Source: Candidatus Tayloriibacteriota bacterium
Lineage (GTDB): Bacteria > Patescibacteriota > Minisyncoccia > Phycocordibacterales > PALSA-1337
Length of the DNA stretch: 52,572 nucleotides
Assembly (NCBI GenBank): GCA_037129895.1
Contig: JBAXUB010000008.1
Span: forward strand, 1 to 52,572
Direction of reading: 5' to 3'
The notes under the pieces were generated by a model. That model worked only from the letters and a program-made list of their open reading frames with translations, made no database searches and was not told where the DNA came from. The position numbers and the translations under genes were made by a program. Numbering within the stretch: position 1 is the first letter of the stretch; every line of letters begins with the position of its first letter. Shown one piece after another: positions 3,429-14,671 of this stretch.

Positions 3429-3890
3429 TCACCTAGTCGCATAAATACTTGGCGTCAATTCCCCTGTTGAACTAGCTGTAATACGACCGTTGCCGTCTAG
3501 ATAGATCCAATACCCAGTATCGTAGTCGTCAACACTTACGAAACCTGCTGTTGTTATCGACGGATCAAATGGCAATGAAGATATGTAATTCGGTACCAGA
3601 CAATATGCCAGATCTCCAGCATCCGCATGATCTCCGCTACCCTTAACCTCAGTCCATACATTTGGTATTGCTTTCACCACACCATCGCAGACAAAGACAC
3701 CTCGATGCTCAGCCATGTTTTGATGCACGGCATTCAGTATCGCATTCACATTACTCGTGCGCTGAGAATCTCTAGCCAATTTGAACTGTCGAGCAGGATT
3801 CACCGCTACCAATACTATAGTTGCTAGAATCGCTATGATACCGATAACCACTAGAATTTCGATCAGAGTAAAACCTTTGTTTTTGTGCAT
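3429..3890 (-). CDS. Type IV pilin / pseudopilin (probable major pilin)
   Basis: KGFTLIEILVVIGIIAILA prepilin cleavage/N-methylation motif; ARDSQRTSNV. Confidence 0.92.
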   Translation of the reverse strand: MHKNKGFTLIEILVVIGIIAILATIVLVAVNPARQFKLARDSQRTSNVNAILNAVHQNMAEHRGVFVCDGVVKAIPNVWTEVKGSGDHADAGDLAYCLVPNYISSLPFDPSITTAGFVSVDDYDTGYWIYLDGNGRITASSTGELTPSIYATR

Positions 3891-3964: not shown

Positions 3965-4030
3965 ATCTTACAATAAGCGGGATAAAATCCTGATAAATTT
4001 TCAATCAAGATTTGATAAAATTTTGATAAA
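3965..4030 (-). promoter_or_regulatory. Promoter with 11-bp-period TTTATC direct-repeat array (site A)
   Basis: GATAAA at 3981, 3992, 4014, 4025 (degenerate at 4003); -10 TAAGAT (3965-3970) is 10 bp from the proximal repeat. Confidence 0.8.
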
Positions 4031-6025: not shown

Positions 6026-7046
6026 ATATTGGCATCAAGATTGATAATGCTATCGCTCCGACAACAACTCCCATAGCGATCATCATTATCGGTTCTATGA
6101 GGGCCGTTAGCTTTTTCAAGGAATGCTCGATCTCCCTGTCGAGAATATTCGCTGCTCGAAGTATAGAGAGCCCCAATGTTCCAGATGATTCCCCTGCTGC
6201 TGTAAGAGCGACGATATACTGAGGAGTTGGTAGGATCGACAAGGCTATATTCAATGGTGACCCTCTAGAGACGATAGGTATCTTTGGTTCGAGTAGTCGA
6301 CGTATAGGCACATAACCGATAGAATTCACAGCATCACTGAAGGCTTTCGCTATAGATTGCCCTCCGTCTATGAGTGACCCAAATGAACGTAGGAATATTA
6401 CTACATTATAATTTCGAACTACTACGCCAATCAGTGGTGTTTTAGATACAGAGGATTGGACGAGCCTTCTAAACAGAGTCGAACTTCTGTAAAGCCAAAT
6501 AGATACAAACGCAAATATTATAATAATTAGGGCGATATATAGACCGTAACGCAATACTACATCTGAACAAAATATCATAATCCTACTTATCAATGGAAGT
6601 TCTGTATGCAATCCTTTCAACATAGGAACGATCTGTGGCATCACACCGCGCATAAGTGCGATAACAAAAACGATTGAAAATATCCCGATAACTCCAGGGT
6701 AGACCATCGCTCCAAAGCATTTCTTCATTAGTTCTTCTTGCTTTTCCAGAATATCACGGACCATGGCTATGGAGGATGAAAGATTACCAGTTTTCTCACC
6801 ATTAGCGATGATACTGGCGAGAGTGCCTGACAACCTGGTCATGTAGACCAAGCCAGAAGAAAATAGAGCCCCTGACTCTATATGAGCTATCAGATTTCTC
6901 ACAGATGGCTTGTGCTTCGTACTTACCCCATCCACACAAAGTCGAAGTGCCATATCAATAGCCAAACCAGATGATAAGTATAGTTCTATTCTTTCCAATA
7001 AAATACACACATCACGCACTTTCCATTTTACGTGTCTTTTCATCAT
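5997..7046 (-). CDS. pilC: Type II secretion F / PilC-family inner-membrane platform protein
   Basis: GEKTGNL, AMVYP, AGESSGTL, LIEPIMM...ILMPIY motifs. Confidence 0.9.
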   Translation of the reverse strand: MMKRHVKWKVRDVCILLERIELYLSSGLAIDMALRLCVDGVSTKHKPSVRNLIAHIESGALFSSGLVYMTRLSGTLASIIANGEKTGNLSSSIAMVRDILEKQEELMKKCFGAMVYPGVIGIFSIVFVIALMRGVMPQIVPMLKGLHTELPLISRIMIFCSDVVLRYGLYIALIIIIFAFVSIWLYRSSTLFRRLVQSSVSKTPLIGVVVRNYNVVIFLRSFGSLIDGGQSIAKAFSDAVNSIGYVPIRRLLEPKIPIVSRGSPLNIALSILPTPQYIVALTAAGESSGTLGLSILRAANILDREIEHSLKKLTALIEPIMMIAMGVVVGAIALSILMPIYDLSKTLQH

Positions 7047-8194
7047 ATATTTAATACGCCCACTACTTCTTCTCTAGTTGTGATACCCCATTCTACTTTC
7101 TCCATTCCATCCTCTATAATCGGGCAAAACCCATTGAACCTAGCAACATTTTGCAGAGAAGATGAAGAAGTTTTCGCAGATATGAGATCGCGCATTACAG
7201 AGTCAATCTCACAGACTTCAGCTATAACTGATCGACCGAAGTATCCAGAAAATTTGCACCTATCACAACCCTCCGCAAAACATTCATGACACATCGTACG
7301 GACAAGACGTTGCGCGACTATGAGACGGAGAGTCGACGCCAATAAATAATGATCTACACCCATATCGACAAGTCTCGTTACTGCTTCTAGAGCTGAATTG
7401 GTATGCAGTGTCGAAAGAACCAAGTGACCAGTTAATGCTGTATGAACCGCAACTTTCGCCGTTTCATTGTCACGAATCTCACCAACCATGATGACGTCAG
7501 GATCTTGACGAAGAGCTGAGCGCAGACCACTTCCGAATGTCACACCATGACTATGCCTTATGTGAACTTGACGCACTCCAGGAATCTCATATTCAACTGG
7601 ATCCTCTAATGTCACGATAGATAATGGCTCACGCACTTTCAATGACAGACATGTATGAAGCGTTGTAGTCTTACCAGAACCGGTAGGACCAGTGACTAGG
7701 ATGAGTCCATGAGTATTCTTCATCGCTTTGTCTATCAGCCGCACATGATCTGGAGTGAATCCCAATTTTGCAAAAGATGTATCTACATTCGTCTTTGATG
7801 GCAACAACCTAATCACAGCATTCTCTCCATGATATGTAGGCATAAACGATATACGAAGATTATACTCTTCACCATTTATGTTCGTCCTCCATCTTCCATC
7901 CTGTGGCATTGCATGAATATCGGTCCTAGCTCCTGAAAGGATCTTCAGTCTAGCTATAACTTCCTCATGTAAGCGTATATTGATCGTACCAACTTCGCCT
8001 ATTCGACCATCTACACGAAACCTCACGATCATGTCATCTTTCCTAGGATCACAATGAATATCCGAGGTCCTCATGTACGCAGCAAAGGCCAAAACCTTAT
8101 CGATCGCTTCTACTGCTGTTTGCGGATTTTGAGGAAAATCAAGTACTGCATTTTGCCCCTGTTTATTAATATTTATATTTGATTCATTATTCAT
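7043..8194 (-). CDS. pilB: GspE/PilB-family assembly ATPase
   Basis: SDIH, PQDGR, GPTGSGKTTT, TLEDPVEY, LRQDPDVIMVGEIRD, TGHLVLSTLH. Confidence 0.95.
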   Translation of the reverse strand: MNNESNININKQGQNAVLDFPQNPQTAVEAIDKVLAFAAYMRTSDIHCDPRKDDMIVRFRVDGRIGEVGTINIRLHEEVIARLKILSGARTDIHAMPQDGRWRTNINGEEYNLRISFMPTYHGENAVIRLLPSKTNVDTSFAKLGFTPDHVRLIDKAMKNTHGLILVTGPTGSGKTTTLHTCLSLKVREPLSIVTLEDPVEYEIPGVRQVHIRHSHGVTFGSGLRSALRQDPDVIMVGEIRDNETAKVAVHTALTGHLVLSTLHTNSALEAVTRLVDMGVDHYLLASTLRLIVAQRLVRTMCHECFAEGCDRCKFSGYFGRSVIAEVCEIDSVMRDLISAKTSSSSLQNVARFNGFCPIIEDGMEKVEWGITTREEVVGVLNI

Positions 8195-8200
8195 GCAGAC

Positions 8201-8255
8201 ACAATATCAAATGACAGATAAAATCCTGATAAAATTTTGATAAAGAATTGATAAA
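8201..8255 (-). promoter_or_regulatory. Promoter with TTTATC direct-repeat array (site B), leaderless pilB
   Basis: GATAAA at 8217, 8228, 8239, 8250; TG-n-TATTGT -10 (8201-8206) 10 bp from the proximal repeat and 6 nt before ATG. Confidence 0.8.
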
Positions 8256-11226: not shown

Positions 11227-12042
11227 TCAATAGCTTGGAAACACCCTTCCTATCTTCGTCCTATTGATCGATAGTGCTATAGCTGCGACTCCGAGATCTT
11301 GACCTATTCTATCAGCTAACGACCTCATATAGGTGCCACTTGAACATCTAACTCTGATCTTAACTGACGGCCATGCTGTCTGGCAGTTTTTCAATAGCCG
11401 GATCCAGGCTTGTATTATTTGATCTTGTCTAAAATCTCCCTTAACTAGACCAATTCTACTGACTATCATTGACAACAGTTTTTCAGACTCGATTGGCACA
11501 ATTTTGTTCTCTACCATTTCAATACTATATATTTCTACTTCCCTCGTAGGCATCTCTTCCGGCAATGCACCGCTTCTAGCCAATTCATGGAGCTGTTTGC
11601 CACCAACGGTTTTTGATGAATACGGTGGGTACTGTTGAACAAACTTCCCAGTATATCCATTCAAATATTCCTGATTCATTATATTCCCAATCTGACTAAG
11701 TCTTATCTCTGTATCGTGTAGAGGTCTGACCTCTACAATACCTAAAGCGTCGAAAGTATCAGTTTTAATACCGAACAAGACTTCGACTTCGTATTCTTTA
11801 TTCAGGTTCAAGAACTTTTCCTTCTCTTTACATTCATCTCCTATCAATATCATAAGTTGACCTTCTGCCATGGGATCAAGGCGCCCGGCGTATGTTAGCG
11901 GTACATCTTTCCAAGAATATTTCGTATCAGTCAAAGATTTGCCATCTACGCATAGTTCACCACTTTGCATTTTAGATAATCTAAATTTTTCCAATGCTTC
12001 AAGTGGCGTCTCACCTATATTCTTATGGATGATTTGGGACAT
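11227..12042 (-). CDS. truB: tRNA pseudouridine(55) synthase TruB-like
   Basis: YAGRLDPMAEG, KEYEV, TDTFD, PPYSS, CSSGTYMRSL. Confidence 0.92.
   Translation of the reverse strand: MSQIIHKNIGETPLEALEKFRLSKMQSGELCVDGKSLTDTKYSWKDVPLTYAGRLDPMAEGQLMILIGDECKEKEKFLNLNKEYEVEVLFGIKTDTFDALGIVEVRPLHDTEIRLSQIGNIMNQEYLNGYTGKFVQQYPPYSSKTVGGKQLHELARSGALPEEMPTREVEIYSIEMVENKIVPIESEKLLSMIVSRIGLVKGDFRQDQIIQAWIRLLKNCQTAWPSVKIRVRCSSGTYMRSLADRIGQDLGVAAIALSINRTKIGRVFPSY
11717..11737. repeat. 21-bp palindrome copy inside truB
   Basis: TGTAGAGGTC-T-GACCTCTACA with perfect 10-bp arms; encodes VEVRPL. Confidence 0.75.
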
Positions 12043-12076
12043 AAGGAGATATTAGCATAGAAATTTGTCTTAATCC

Positions 12077-12142
12077 TTTATTACTTCTTTATCATTTCTT
12101 TATCAAAATTTTATCAGGATTTTATCTATTCTCTGGTACTGT
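12077..12142 (+). promoter_or_regulatory. Promoter with TTTATC direct-repeat array (site C) upstream of tRNA-like RNA
   Basis: TTTATC at 12088, 12099, 12110, 12121 (TTTATT at 12077); TG-n-TACTGT -10 at 12137-12142, 10 bp downstream. Confidence 0.8.
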
Positions 12143-12171
12143 CTCATTGCGCAGGCATCTTGCCTTCGCGT

Positions 12172-12244
12172 GGCCCCGTGAGACGGTCTTGGCTTTTACC
12201 TCATCAATAAAAGTCTGCGGGTTCGACTCCCGCCAGGGCCACCA
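12172..12244 (+). ncRNA. Non-canonical tRNA-like RNA
   Basis: Acceptor GGCCCCG/CAGGGCC + A-CCA; perfect T arm GCGGG-TTCGACT-CCCGC; vestigial D arm; 8-bp stem GGCTTTTA/TAAAAGTC with 9-nt loop CCTCATCAA; 1-nt variable region. Confidence 0.75.
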
Positions 12245-12254
12245 AATATCGAAC

Positions 12255-12282
12255 TTGACGAACTCTTGTTTTCAACTATAAT
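12255..12282 (+). promoter_or_regulatory. Sigma70-type promoter for downstream sRNA
   Basis: TTGACG-N16-TATAAT. Confidence 0.7.
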
Positions 12283-12288
12283 GATAAC

Positions 12289-12373
12289 CAATTGATGAGG
12301 TAGAAGCTGCGGAACGCTGAGAAAGGAAAACTCGCAGACTTAGTAAAGACTCGCTTCGGCGGGTTTTTACTTT
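12289..12373 (+). ncRNA. Putative ~85-nt sRNA antisense to the tRNA-like RNA
   Basis: Own promoter; 5' ATTGATGAGGTAGAAGC complementary to 12192-12208; CTGCG/CGCAG stem; terminator AGTAAAGACTCGC-TTCG-GCGGGTTTTTACT; no ATG-initiated ORF longer than 2 codons. Confidence 0.65.
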
Positions 12374-12405
12374 AAATATTAATCCATTCCTGCTACAATA
12401 TCCCC

Positions 12406-13680
12406 ATGGCAGATAAAGCAAAAAAACTGAATACTGAGGCTTATAAAGGCGTCCGAGACTTCTTTCCGCAGGATATGGCGATCGAAAAGGCTATTTTCGG
12501 CGTATGGAGAAATGTCTGCGAGAAATATGGTTACGAAGAATACGGTGCTTCTGTATTGGAGCCGGCCGAACTTTATCGTGCAAAATCAGGCGAAGAGATA
12601 GTAAACGAACAGACTTACACATTCACAGATCGTGGAGATCGTGAAGTGACATTGCGTCCAGAGATGACACCAACTGTAGCTCGTATGGTCGCAGCAAAGA
12701 AACGCGAACTCGCCTTTCCGTTACGCTGGTACTCGATTCCAAACCTTTTCCGTTATGAACAACCACAGAGAGGCCGCGTCCGTGAACATTGGCAGCTCAA
12801 TGTGGACATATTCGGCGTTGATTCGATAAACGCAGAGATTGAGACTATCAATATGGCTTACGATATTATGCGTGCTTATGGCCTCAAAGATACCGACTTC
12901 GAGATACGTGTAAACAACCGGAAACTGATGAACTATGTAACACGCGACGTATTCTCACTAGATGAGTCAACCGCACAGAAAGTCTCTAAACTGATCGACA
13001 AGAAAGACAAGATGAAGCCCGAGACATTCGAGCTCGGTGCAAAGGAATTACTCGGAGAAAATACTCAGAAATTTTTGACACTTCTCAATTCACAGAATTT
13101 TGAGGAATTCACCTCGAGACTCCCGCAGACAAAAGAGGAACATCTCGGCCTCAAGGAGATTCGCGAAGTCATCGCTGGCCTAGAAAAGCTAGGTATAACC
13201 AATACACGTTTTGACCAAACTCTGATGCGCGGATTTGACTATTATACTGGGATCGTATTCGAAGTATTCGACCTCAATCCCGCAAATCGTCGTGCCGTTT
13301 TTGGTGGTGGTAGATATGATGACCTATTGGCACTATTCGGCAATGACAAGGTATCAGCTGTCGGATTTGGCTCTGGTGATGTGATCGCTCGTGACATTAT
13401 GGAAACCTATGGAACACTGCCAGCAGTGAAAGCGCCAGCCAATATAGCTATCTGCATACTTGGCACACAGAATACATCATACGCACTGGATGTGGCTCAA
13501 TCATTACGATCAAAAGGGACGAAAGTCACCGTCAATATATCTGGAAAGAAGCTCAGTGATCAGATCAGTAATGCAGACAAATGCAGTATACCTCTAGTCA
13601 TTTGCATCGGCGACGAAGAAGTCAAAACTGGCAAACTTAAAATCAAGGACCTGAAGAGCGGTGAGGAAAAGGAGTTGTAA
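12406..13680 (+). CDS. hisS: Histidine--tRNA ligase
   Basis: KGVRDF, LRPEMT, FRYEQPQRGRVREHWQ, RGFDYYTG, GGGRYD. Confidence 0.97.
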   Translation: MADKAKKLNTEAYKGVRDFFPQDMAIEKAIFGVWRNVCEKYGYEEYGASVLEPAELYRAKSGEEIVNEQTYTFTDRGDREVTLRPEMTPTVARMVAAKKRELAFPLRWYSIPNLFRYEQPQRGRVREHWQLNVDIFGVDSINAEIETINMAYDIMRAYGLKDTDFEIRVNNRKLMNYVTRDVFSLDESTAQKVSKLIDKKDKMKPETFELGAKELLGENTQKFLTLLNSQNFEEFTSRLPQTKEEHLGLKEIREVIAGLEKLGITNTRFDQTLMRGFDYYTGIVFEVFDLNPANRRAVFGGGRYDDLLALFGNDKVSAVGFGSGDVIARDIMETYGTLPAVKAPANIAICILGTQNTSYALDVAQSLRSKGTKVTVNISGKKLSDQISNADKCSIPLVICIGDEEVKTGKLKIKDLKSGEEKEL

Positions 13681-13738: not shown

Positions 13739-14572
13739 CTATCTACTCAAAACCATCTTTCTGTCTTCCGACTTTATCCTCCTTCTTAATTTCTTCAAAT
13801 CCTCCGCCGCTGGCAAAGCCTCCGGTTTTATACCGCTTTTACCCAGAAGATCTCGAACATTTTTGTTATTTTTTATATGTTCATGAGTTATCACTGCTTC
13901 ACCTCTTAGGTTAGCTTCACGCTTCAAAGTAAAGCTCGTTATCTCATTTGCAAAATCCTTAGCCTTTATAGTAATAGCAGGCAAAAAATCAGCCAAGGCA
14001 CGCGAGACCGGCACACCAAGCTTCTGCTTCATATTCAATGTGGTGTTGCCACCAAACAATGCTTGGTCACCTTTACTTCGTATTCGTGCAAAACCGGCAC
14101 CATCAACACCACGCTCGTACATCAATCCTGATAATAGCTTCTCGGAATTTGACAGCTTTTCCCTGAACATCAACCGTTCCAGCTCATTTATTCTTTTCTC
14201 TATCAACTCCTGCTTACGAGTCTGTATAGCAAAATATGCCATAGCAAAGGCCACTGGTCCTTTATTTGGGTCTCCATTTTGGGCTACGAGATAACATGCG
14301 TAACGAGTAAGTGAAATGTCTTCAATCTCACGTTCTGCGCCCTTACCGGCAACTATCATCTTGTTGACACCAACAAATTGATCGCCGACTGAAACTTTGC
14401 TGTTAGTACAAGCCGTTTTTGCCTTATCTATAACCTTGAGAAAATTCCGCCACTCATCGTACCCCAACAAAACCTGTAAATCCCTAGCAAACCAAAATTC
14501 AAGTCCATCCTCTGTTTTTTGGGCGTACTCATCGAAACTTTTATGAAGTTGGTGAATAATTTCAGTTTTCAT
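13739..14572 (-). CDS. dinD: DNA-damage-inducible protein D (Bro-N family)
   Basis: EFWFARDLQVLLGY, LTRYACYLVAQNGDP, YFAIQTRKQE, RSKGDQALFGG; start moved to ATG 14572, 7 nt after TATAAT. Confidence 0.9.
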   Translation of the reverse strand: MKTEIIHQLHKSFDEYAQKTEDGLEFWFARDLQVLLGYDEWRNFLKVIDKAKTACTNSKVSVGDQFVGVNKMIVAGKGAEREIEDISLTRYACYLVAQNGDPNKGPVAFAMAYFAIQTRKQELIEKRINELERLMFREKLSNSEKLLSGLMYERGVDGAGFARIRSKGDQALFGGNTTLNMKQKLGVPVSRALADFLPAITIKAKDFANEITSFTLKREANLRGEAVITHEHIKNNKNVRDLLGKSGIKPEALPAAEDLKKLRRRIKSEDRKMVLSR

Positions 14573-14652
14573 TTGCACAATTATATCAAACGAAATATTC
14601 TTGAGAAGTTCCCAAGCAAAAAAAATTATGTTGAAACATACGAAATCAGAAA

Positions 14653-14671
14653 TTTCTCGTAACTTCAAGCT
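14653..14671 (+). repeat. Direct repeat flanking dinD (copy 2)
   Basis: TTTCTCGTAACTTCAAGCT. Confidence 0.75.

Follow-up and report, generated by a model that had tools for sequence, protein, structure and literature searches.

A tRNA-shaped RNA with a private hairpin and an adjacent, co-varying partner RNA gene as a candidate two-gene RNA module in Patescibacteriota

The stretch of DNA analysed here (the window: contig JBAXUB010000008.1 of assembly GCA_037129895.1, positions 1 to 52,572 of the forward strand, from a Candidatus Tayloriibacteriota bacterium of the phylum Patescibacteriota) carries, between truB and hisS, a gene for a transfer RNA (tRNA)-like RNA in which a long hairpin takes the place of the anticodon arm and, directly downstream of it, a second small gene whose RNA is complementary to that hairpin. 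We propose, with the case standing about evenly for and against, that the two form an RNA module in which a non-decoding tRNA mimic is controlled by a dedicated anti-RNA through strand invasion. The anatomy of the module, its conservation, the covariation of its two parts, the orthogonality of its paralogues and its predicted thermodynamics are observations and are presented below before the mechanism itself. The parts of the module in the window (coordinates are window positions) are as follows:

12170-12244, + strand: tRNA-like RNA (ARAGORN, Rfam tRNA score, predicted fold and covariation among homologues)
12149-12169, + strand: leader hairpin abutting the terminal stem (RNAfold centroid of 12140-12244)
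12255-12282, + strand: sigma-70-type promoter of the partner, TTGACG-N16-TATAAT (promoter scan, 11/12 match)
12290-12370, + strand: partner small RNA (predicted fold; start inferred from the position of the -10 element)
12291-12309, + strand: pairing block R1, complement of the hairpin loop and 5' strand, pairing with 12190-12208
12329-12341, + strand: pairing block R2, complement of the hairpin 3' strand, the variable base and the T-stem 5' strand (12211-12223; repeat search)

A tRNA-shaped RNA had originally been predicted at 12172-12244, and re-reading of the sequence together with ARAGORN, Rfam and RNAfold confirmed it, with a 7-base pair (bp) acceptor stem, a mini D arm, a hairpin at 12191-12215, a 1-nucleotide (nt) variable region, a T arm and an encoded ACCA. 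The acceptor stem (GGCCCCG/CAGGGCC, with a single C-A mismatch), the encoded ACCA and the perfect T arm (GCGGG-UUCGACU-CCCGC) are as first described when checked against ARAGORN and the sequence, and RNAfold likewise returns the 8-bp stem (GGCUUUUA/UAAAAGUC) and 9-nt loop (CCUCAUCAA) of the hairpin. The D arm had been called vestigial; it is indeed reduced but not absent, being a mini-arm of 3-4 bp whose loop keeps the conserved GG. Two features had been missed, namely that the acceptor stem can be extended by 2 bp (12170-71 with 12241-42) and that the leader hairpin listed above lies upstream of it. The canonical tRNA features found in the window RNA are the acceptor stem, the T arm with the T-loop consensus and the D-loop GG.

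In the RNAfold prediction for the partner RNA the first 14 nt are unpaired and are followed by two hairpins, an internal one and a terminator hairpin that has a UUCG loop and a U run; the z-score of this fold is -2.85, and one of 200 shuffles was as stable. Its promoter, proposed earlier by inspection, was recovered by the promoter scan; of the proposed UUCG terminator, the hairpin and U run stood in the RNAfold prediction but were not listed by a consensus terminator scan. The 17-nt complementarity between 12192-12208 and 12291-12307 that formed the core of the original prediction was also found by the repeat search, as an inverted repeat whose one mismatch is a G-U pair in the plus-strand RNA. 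As a whole, R1 comprises 19 contiguous pairs if G-U is allowed, beginning 8 nt past the -10 element, and RNAduplex predicts for it a duplex of 18 pairs at -28.1 kcal/mol. The R2 block, previously unremarked, spans 13 nt at 92% and reaches -21.5 kcal/mol, a value matched by none of 200 shuffles. The predicted dimer of the two RNAs has an energy of -63.2 kcal/mol versus -24.3 and -24.7 kcal/mol for the monomers, and is thus 14.2 kcal/mol more stable. Within the free partner R1 and R2 are predicted to pair with each other, so that the 5' tail would be available as a toehold, in a geometry of strand exchange. Dinucleotide shuffling of 11950-12500 produced a 17-nt repeat with at most one mismatch in 8 of 500 trials, which is modest by itself; the significance of the complementarity in the window comes from homologous loci rather than from this repeat alone.

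A DNA search of 61 relatives gave three homologues (in genomes G009, G010 and G032; G000 is the window's own genome), in which the layout is as in the window, the hairpin sequences differ and the downstream RNA changes accordingly. Covariance models of the tRNA-like part (models R1 and then R2, the latter built from 37 members, both distinct from the pairing blocks of the same names) were run against the 93 genus genomes and against three samples, taken from the order, the class and the phylum, each of 151 genomes with G000 among them. In total, 79 homologous tRNA-like genes were collected from these four levels and, by script and by eye, a partner gene was seen directly downstream in 73 of them, 55 being of the window's type (type A) and 18 of a second type (type B). 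The earlier idea of a tRNA-like RNA paired with a separately promoted and terminated partner is thereby supported.

A type A partner opens with bases complementary to the loop and 5' strand of the hairpin, and often to the D-stem 3' strand as well. In 29/30 genus loci a regular expression search placed a TTGAC-type -35 and a TAnnnT -10 element ahead of the partner, the -35 beginning 0-45 nt past the end of the tRNA-like gene. A run of 12 or more uninterrupted pairs, counting G-U, sets in 2-10 nt past the -10 in 48/55 modules; in the other seven the complement is present, with the promoter expression failing or the run being interrupted. The hairpin varies freely and the 5' end of the partner co-varies with it, as had been anticipated for related genomes: across the 55 type A modules the mean duplex energy was -32.7 kcal/mol for cognate pairs versus -14.9 kcal/mol for non-cognate ones, and the cognate was the best of 55 for 47 arms and for 52 partners, in a test where each partner window was placed by its own arm, which somewhat favours cognates. 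In a smaller first set the cognate was best in 25/29. Where loci were checked base by base, the mismatches were G-U pairs in the plus-strand RNA. The same specificity is seen inside single genomes: ten genomes have two type A modules, and in every one of them each cognate duplex (-21 to -48 kcal/mol) is more stable than its cross duplexes (-8 to -27 kcal/mol), so that paralogous modules within one genome are orthogonal. The R2 block (hairpin 3' strand, variable region and T-stem 5' strand) was equalled in no more than 5 of 200 shuffles in 12 of the 27 loci scored. Partner starts resembling CUGAUGAG had brought the hammerhead ribozyme to mind, and this candidate was rejected, as the supposed core positions vary and co-vary with the loop.

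In the original prediction the tRNA-like RNA was a base-pairing regulator that presents its loop as a seed for messenger RNAs (mRNAs), and the downstream RNA was a sponge or decoy for it. A loop carried on a stable scaffold, a partner with a strong consensus promoter and a conserved complementarity would all suit this arrangement, but even close relatives, and paralogues too, have hypervariable loops, so that any mRNA target would have to change as well, which argues against conserved mRNA targets. Furthermore, the other 9-10-nt seed matches in the genome read, by context, as coding I/L-D-E-V (one is a Walker-B-like LIIDEV in a coding sequence) and not as start regions, and a conserved tRNA core with a tRNA-Ala acceptor would be needless in a scaffold for a seed. 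We consider such a seed regulator unlikely; the partner more probably controls the tRNA-like RNA. Apart from the UGGUGGA block and 5' hairpin of type B partners (described below), the conserved features that complementarity does not explain lie in the tRNA-like RNA, the partner otherwise consisting only of complements and a terminator, and every module has a private, hypervariable hairpin. A conserved tRNA core combined with a hypervariable, private hairpin fits an effector with its antagonist better than a seed regulator with its sponge.

When the 79 members were aligned to model R2, 94.5% of cells were paired (as high in none of 500 shuffles), 19 of 22 pairs had double changes, and covariation was 0.635, compared with 0.179 for shuffles and no more than 0.123 for slid partners, figures that come from alignments (A4 and A5) fitted to the model and so favouring the structure. 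The acceptor and T arms, the D-loop GG, the T-loop UUCGA and A73 are conserved across the family. A G3:U70 pair is present in 71 of 78 members, while the neighbouring pair 4:69 varies (CG 55, GC 15, UA 4, AU 2). The rules of identity for alanyl-tRNA synthetase (AlaRS) include this G3:U70 wobble pair and A73, and among the 46 tRNAs of the window's genome only the three tRNA-Ala genes have G3:U70; their acceptor stems (GGGCCCG/CGGGUCC, GGGCCUA/UAGGUCC and GGGCCAU/AUGGUCC) are those found in the family. From these sequence features most members of the family should be alanine acceptors. The window copy belongs to a subclade (G000, G009, G010, G104 and G098) with C3-G70, which accounts for the five CG cases at 3:70, and although G1-C72, G2-C71 and A73 are present in it, alanylation is not predicted for this copy.

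Pairing in the family continues past the acceptor stem, with U-A at -1:73 in 70/79 members and GC in 58, AU in 7, CG in 2 and UA in 2 at -2:74, and in other orders the extension reaches 4 bp and also co-varies (CCGU/ACGG, CGGU/ACCG, CCUU/AAGG, CAUU/AAUG and AUGU/ACAU). A hairpin (minimum free energy of -5 or lower) within the 30 nt upstream abuts the extended stem in 50/63 genus loci.

Several lines of evidence bear on whether the window RNA could decode. The genome (841,529 bases, reported as 100% complete) has 46 ARAGORN tRNA genes, one of which is the window locus, called as tRNA-Met(cat) at 12172-12244 (+) with the anticodon at position 31 and not at 33-35. Its score with the Rfam tRNA model (RF00005) is 27.4 bits against a gathering score of 29, and it is absent from the gathering-level list, which has the window's four normal tRNAs, while the other 46 Rfam tRNA matches of the genome score 48-74.7 bits; it had been expected that no canonical tRNA would be called here, which holds for Rfam but not for ARAGORN. 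In the 7-nt-loop reading of ARAGORN there is a C at 37 and a C-A mismatch at 31-39, and the combination of a 7-nt anticodon loop with U33, a purine at 37 and an anticodon conserved among orthologues is not found in this RNA. The genome also has two initiator-like and one elongator-like CAU tRNAs, besides tRNA-Ile(UAU) and tRNA-Ile(GAU), and the three other CAU tRNAs make the window RNA a redundant fourth CAU gene. (The gene for tRNA-Ile(UAU) and two near-identical initiator-like tRNA-Met genes lie on contigs of G000 at C10:145-219, C19:38785-38857 and C21:8178-8250.) A likeness to tRNA-Met or tRNA-Ile2(CAU) had been read into the loop, but this CAU is incidental, because relatives have different loops (CUCGCCAG, CCUAGUCAGC and UUUAGCAAC among others), and the acceptor of the family is that of tRNA-Ala. 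These features support the view that the window RNA is a repurposed tRNA scaffold and not a decoding tRNA.

That the locus is simply an ordinary or decaying tRNA-Met/Ile2 gene lying beside a chance or duplication-derived repeat would be in keeping with the ARAGORN call and with the modest rarity of the repeat in shuffles. This explanation has next to no probability in our estimation and is already contradicted by the data: besides the surplus of CAU tRNAs, the presence of tRNA-Ile(UAU), the low Rfam score and the unsuitable positions 31, 37 and 39, the fold, unlike the loop, is preserved in homologues, and the partner changes along with the loop.

Most members of the family share with the tRNA-like domain of transfer-messenger RNA (tmRNA, RF00023) an acceptor/T minihelix with G3:U70 and A73, a reduced D region and the lack of a decoding anticodon, and their matches to the tmRNA model cover that domain only, all of which might suggest a second, two-piece tmRNA for ribosome rescue with the tRNA-like domain on one RNA and the message piece on the other. 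However, these matches reach only 16-31 bits (23.5 for the window RNA) against a cut-off of 47, and the module has a closed hairpin in the anticodon position in place of the long P2 helix, pseudoknots and tag open reading frame (ORF) of tmRNA, besides an adjacent antisense partner. A standard tmRNA (91.5 bits) lies at C10:2935-3300 adjoining smpB, the genome encodes a single SmpB, the window copy is without G3:U70, no shared reading frame was seen in the four partners read by eye, and the start of the partner is the paired region. A two-piece tmRNA is accordingly highly improbable.

Type B modules, none of which is in the window's genome, have a CUUACCAGUG-like loop and a partner that starts with a hairpin followed by UGGUGGA and about 4 nt. 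This block pairs with positions 66-72 (the acceptor 3' strand), A73 and CCA, and UCACUGGUAACAC, further along the partner and right before the terminator, pairs with the loop. The CCA is genome-encoded in none of the 18 rows with UGGUGGA, where the mean contiguous run from the 3' end is 9.5 bp (the rows being 16 type B loci and the type A loci L043 and L059; type B loci L115 and L116 are not among them), and at least three of the four variable positions pair in 11/16 type B rows. That these partners pair with an unencoded CCA indicates recognition, in trans, of an RNA already processed at its 3' end and tailed with CCA. The type A partner in the window has no UGG block and no contact with the CCA end. 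At L043 (G089) the type A partner has another small gene downstream of it, with a type-B-like start (hairpin and UGGUGGAC) that pairs over 8 bp with the CCA-tailed end of the same tRNA-like RNA.

These type B data also bear on another reading, in which both parts belong to a single transcript, complementarity in cis acts as a structural switch that controls folding, processing or release, and the internal promoter supplies additional partner. No terminator lies between the two genes, so that read-through from the tRNA-like gene would put both on one transcript and make folding in cis possible; the closeness of the partner's -35 to the tRNA-like end is in keeping with this, and the leader/trailer pairing and leader hairpin suggest controlled processing. 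Nevertheless, a consensus promoter is kept ahead of the partner in all but one of the 30 loci scored for it, and the pairing of type B partners with a CCA absent from the DNA requires a processed RNA and hence action in trans, so we hold a switch in cis to be improbable.

The module in the window is flanked by truB (minus strand) and by hisS (coding sequence 12406-13680), and the original prediction had looked to this same pair of genes in relatives. The locus is not tied to the pair: the neighbours differ among relatives, being glycosyltransferase, GrpE, RecG and FtsH genes in G010, G009 and G032 and MurA-like and others elsewhere, with no conserved protein neighbour among the loci compared. 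Of the 36 loci scored, one is without a called downstream ORF; among the remaining 35 the next gene is convergent 29 times and on the same strand six times, the latter cases including hisS in G000 and G099 and alaS in G124. The changing context and the mostly convergent next gene show the module to be free-standing and not a leader. In the single case of L063 (G124, 1501-1700), a type A module with G3:U70 lies directly upstream of, and on the same strand as, alaS (starting at about 1728 and identified by its tRNA-synt_2c match of 464.7 bits). The hisS gene of the window has a promoter-like site of its own beyond the partner's terminator:

12371-12399, + strand: promoter-like site of hisS, TTTAAA-N17-TACAAT with TG (9/12 match)

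A T-box-like leader or attenuator acting in cis on a downstream aminoacyl-tRNA synthetase gene, here hisS, would account for these same-strand positions upstream of hisS and alaS and for the terminator hairpin, and it would be apt that type B partners pair through UGG with NCCA as T-boxes do and that, as in a T-box riboswitch, the partner contacts a tRNA-shaped RNA at the position of the anticodon loop. However, the convergent downstream genes, the differing neighbours and the separate hisS site all speak against it, and no T-box (RF00230) match was obtained in the window region at E-values up to 10 or in 12 related loci at E-values up to 0.1. The partner also differs from a T-box in not being a leader, in pairing over 12-22 bp with invasion of stems, and in having as its ligand a private mimic encoded next door. 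We therefore regard such a leader as very unlikely.

In the two-gene module that we favour, the first gene would produce a non-decoding tRNA mimic which keeps the acceptor/T minihelix, the elbow (D-loop GG and T-loop UUCGA) and A73 and, in most members, the tRNA-Ala acceptor stem with G3:U70, while the anticodon arm would have turned into a long hairpin that evolves fast and functions purely as an address. The second gene would produce the dedicated anti-RNA from its own sigma-70-type promoter; the single-stranded 5' tail of this RNA would dock on the hairpin loop as a toehold and invade the stem and the D stem (R1), and R2 would in many members open the T arm. Binding would unfold or sequester the mimic and hide it from the tRNA-binding machinery, the resulting 17-22 bp duplexes would be possible substrates for RNase III, and the partner would in this way set the amount of active mimic. 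RNase III, AlaRS and RNase P RNA are all encoded in the genome. The transcription of the two genes, their action in trans, the direction of control, alanylation and a cellular activity of the mimic are inferred. A wider possibility, put forward tentatively and with a good deal less confidence, is that these are phylum-wide, RNA-only effector/antagonist modules in which an alanine-accepting mimic acts on the translation or tRNA-maturation machinery and is held by orthogonal anti-RNAs, with type B partners reading the free CCA, and hence uncharged versus charged mimic, as a trans-acting, T-box-like sensor with toxin-antitoxin-like logic. The patchy, multi-copy and orthogonal pattern is compatible with a toxin-antitoxin-like reading and does not demonstrate it.

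A number of points weigh against the proposal of a mimic controlled by its anti-RNA. Besides the biases of the duplex test and of the fitted alignments, the modest rarity of the repeat in the window, the restriction of R2 to fewer than half of the scored loci and the scope for cis folding left by the missing terminator, six of the 79 tRNA-like genes have no visible partner. The window copy is a derived member without G3:U70 and with a C-A mismatch. The leader/trailer pairing of 2-4 bp would bury A73-C74, which is awkward for a free acceptor end, and FemAB and LPG_synthase_C, which are consumers of special Ala-RNA, were not detected in the 100%-complete genome. A search for sequencing runs turned up seven DNA entries and none of RNA, and both transcripts, their ends and the duplex are predictions.

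Model R2 gave a match of at least 46.7 bits in 52 of the 93 genus genomes, ordinary tRNAs among the inspected genus matches scoring no higher than 45.3 bits (tRNA-Cys of G090), and each of the 45 genus genomes from which sequences were inspected had at least one module. Several genomes with a reported completeness of 98-100% are without a match (for example G029, G083 and G107), so that the module is accessory. Type A modules occur outside the genus in the same order (G124 and G184), in the same class (9 of the 11 listed loci, in G378, G319, G263 with two copies, G352, G349, G372, G277 and G377) and in other classes (5 of the 11 listed loci, in G477 with two copies, G417, and G430 with two copies). 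Score thresholds alone are unsafe outside the genus: the class-level matches L132 and L133 were rejected as they look like real tRNA-Ala, and the phylum-level matches L139 and L142 were rejected as tRNA-like or real tRNAs without a partner.

Some loci depart from the common plan. Four matches in other classes, L136 and L144 (G467) and L138 and L145 (G418), are not modules: a terminator follows the tRNA-like gene, and past it lies, in place of a complement, either a partial copy in direct orientation of the hairpin's loop and 5' strand or a small hairpin resembling an acceptor. At L062, L077 and L078 (G191), L065 (G042) and L066 (G237) the loop is of a UUACCA type and no partner lies downstream, and a short UGGUA-type partial complement is found in the 5' leader of these tRNA-like genes; of the three copies in G191, two are separated by 1.4 kb. 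At L098 (G027) and L101 (G078) the T-arm 3' strand of the tRNA-like gene is split by one and the same insert of about 28 nt, and the partner is still present and complementary. At L125 (G378, 1270-1933) and L129 (G349, 1276-1936), in two genomes of different families, the linker of a mini-intein (Intein_splicing 72-76 bits, blocks CVTGDTRL and IVAHNT) contains a complete type A module in antisense orientation. The intein is itself within a large, tail-fibre-like ORF with GNVGIGTT repeats, whose reading frame is not closed by the module. Viral contigs often carry the 3' motif GGGTTCGAYTCCCGYCNGGTCCAC (at least 120 stretches), and there it may mark the 3' ends of tmRNA or tRNA-Ala or attachment sites; no family member was found with model R2 among 80 viral-contig loci with this motif (IMG/VR, L147-L226), the best scoring 42 bits.

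Two further features lie upstream of the tRNA-like gene in the window:

12077-12126, + strand: 11-bp-phased TT(T/C)(A/T)TC boxes, an element of a promoter class (direct repeats with 11-nt spacing)
12134-12142, + strand: extended -10-like element TGGTACTGT of the tRNA-like gene (read from the sequence; start inferred near 12148-12150)

The -10-like element was not detected by the sigma-70 consensus scan. Boxes of the same kind are also found upstream of the tRNA-like gene in relatives, and the pattern TTTATC-N6-8-T(G/T)nTAnnnT is common to 12 strict sites genome-wide. With a box promoter for the tRNA-like gene and a sigma-70 promoter for the partner, the two RNAs are likely to be under different control. 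The same promoter class is seen in the window at about 8222-8255 (-) and 3986-4030 (-) and on contigs C1, C2, C4, C10, C20, C22, C23 and C25, ahead of genes for a T2SSE/PilB-like ATPase (window 7043-8194, -), an N_methyl pilin (window 3429-3890, -), a ComM-like Mg-chelatase-family protein, a PemK/MazF-like toxin and three paralogous, otherwise uncharacterised proteins of about 130 amino acids; it may represent a pilus/competence-type regulon that also takes in the tRNA-like RNA. Just downstream of hisS, at 13739-14668 (-), the window encodes a protein with a BRO-N domain (35.5 bits), a domain common in phage proteins.

As was expected at the outset, the module falls in no known RNA family, Rfam 15 assigning none at threshold to the window region or to 12 related loci, whether at gathering level or with permissive E-values. 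Literature searches found no description of it, most subscription journals lying outside the search, so that a description elsewhere is possible; the papers returned dealt with viral tRNA genes, release factors, unrelated long non-coding RNAs and type I and III toxin-antitoxin systems. Like small RNA/sponge pairs, the module consists of two non-coding RNAs that interact by base pairing, one of them tRNA-linked; the 3'ETS-leuZ spacer of a tRNA precursor sponges RyhB and RybB. Here, in contrast, the tRNA-shaped body itself is paired, both RNAs belong to one hypervariable and orthogonal module, and no third-party mRNA target is evident. With IS10 RNA-IN/RNA-OUT, CopA/CopT and C4 of P1/P7 it has in common a 5' tail or loop that provides a toehold for stem invasion and a complement shortly downstream on the same strand. 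The RNA-OUT, CopA and C4 systems control mRNA for a transposase, a replication protein or an antirepressor, and C4 is processed by RNase P, whereas neither RNA of the module shows a coding target and its structured RNA mimics a complete tRNA and carries identity elements of tRNA-Ala; the Rfam C4 family was not matched in the window region.

The RNA-only (type VIII) toxin-antitoxin systems CreTA and SdsR/RyeA are similarly adjacent RNA pairs with several orthogonal copies, a patchy spread and a shifting context, but their antagonists act by Cascade repression or as cis-antisense RNAs, toxicity of the present module is a candidate property only and, to our knowledge, the known RNA toxins are not tRNA mimics. 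The tRNA-Other of B. cereus, YrlA and mascRNA also keep a tRNA fold for a non-decoding role, and the MALAT1 tRNA-like element (mascRNA) reportedly has leader/trailer pairing at the acceptor end, as the module does. We know of none of these three with a dedicated, co-varying partner RNA gene, and Rfam gave no match to pseudo-tRNA or tRNA-like families in the window region.

Since the gene in the window is called as tRNA-Met by ARAGORN, genes of this kind can inflate tRNA counts in these genomes. Should both RNAs be expressed and interact in the predicted way, they would constitute a widespread module of the candidate phyla radiation that combines a tRNA-Ala-derived scaffold, a private hairpin and a dedicated anti-RNA. 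This would extend the uses of the tRNA fold beyond decoding, tmRNA and T-box ligands and would provide a natural set of orthogonal RNA-RNA pairs, and it would make the role of a non-decoding Ala-tRNA mimic in organisms with minimal genomes a concrete, testable question.

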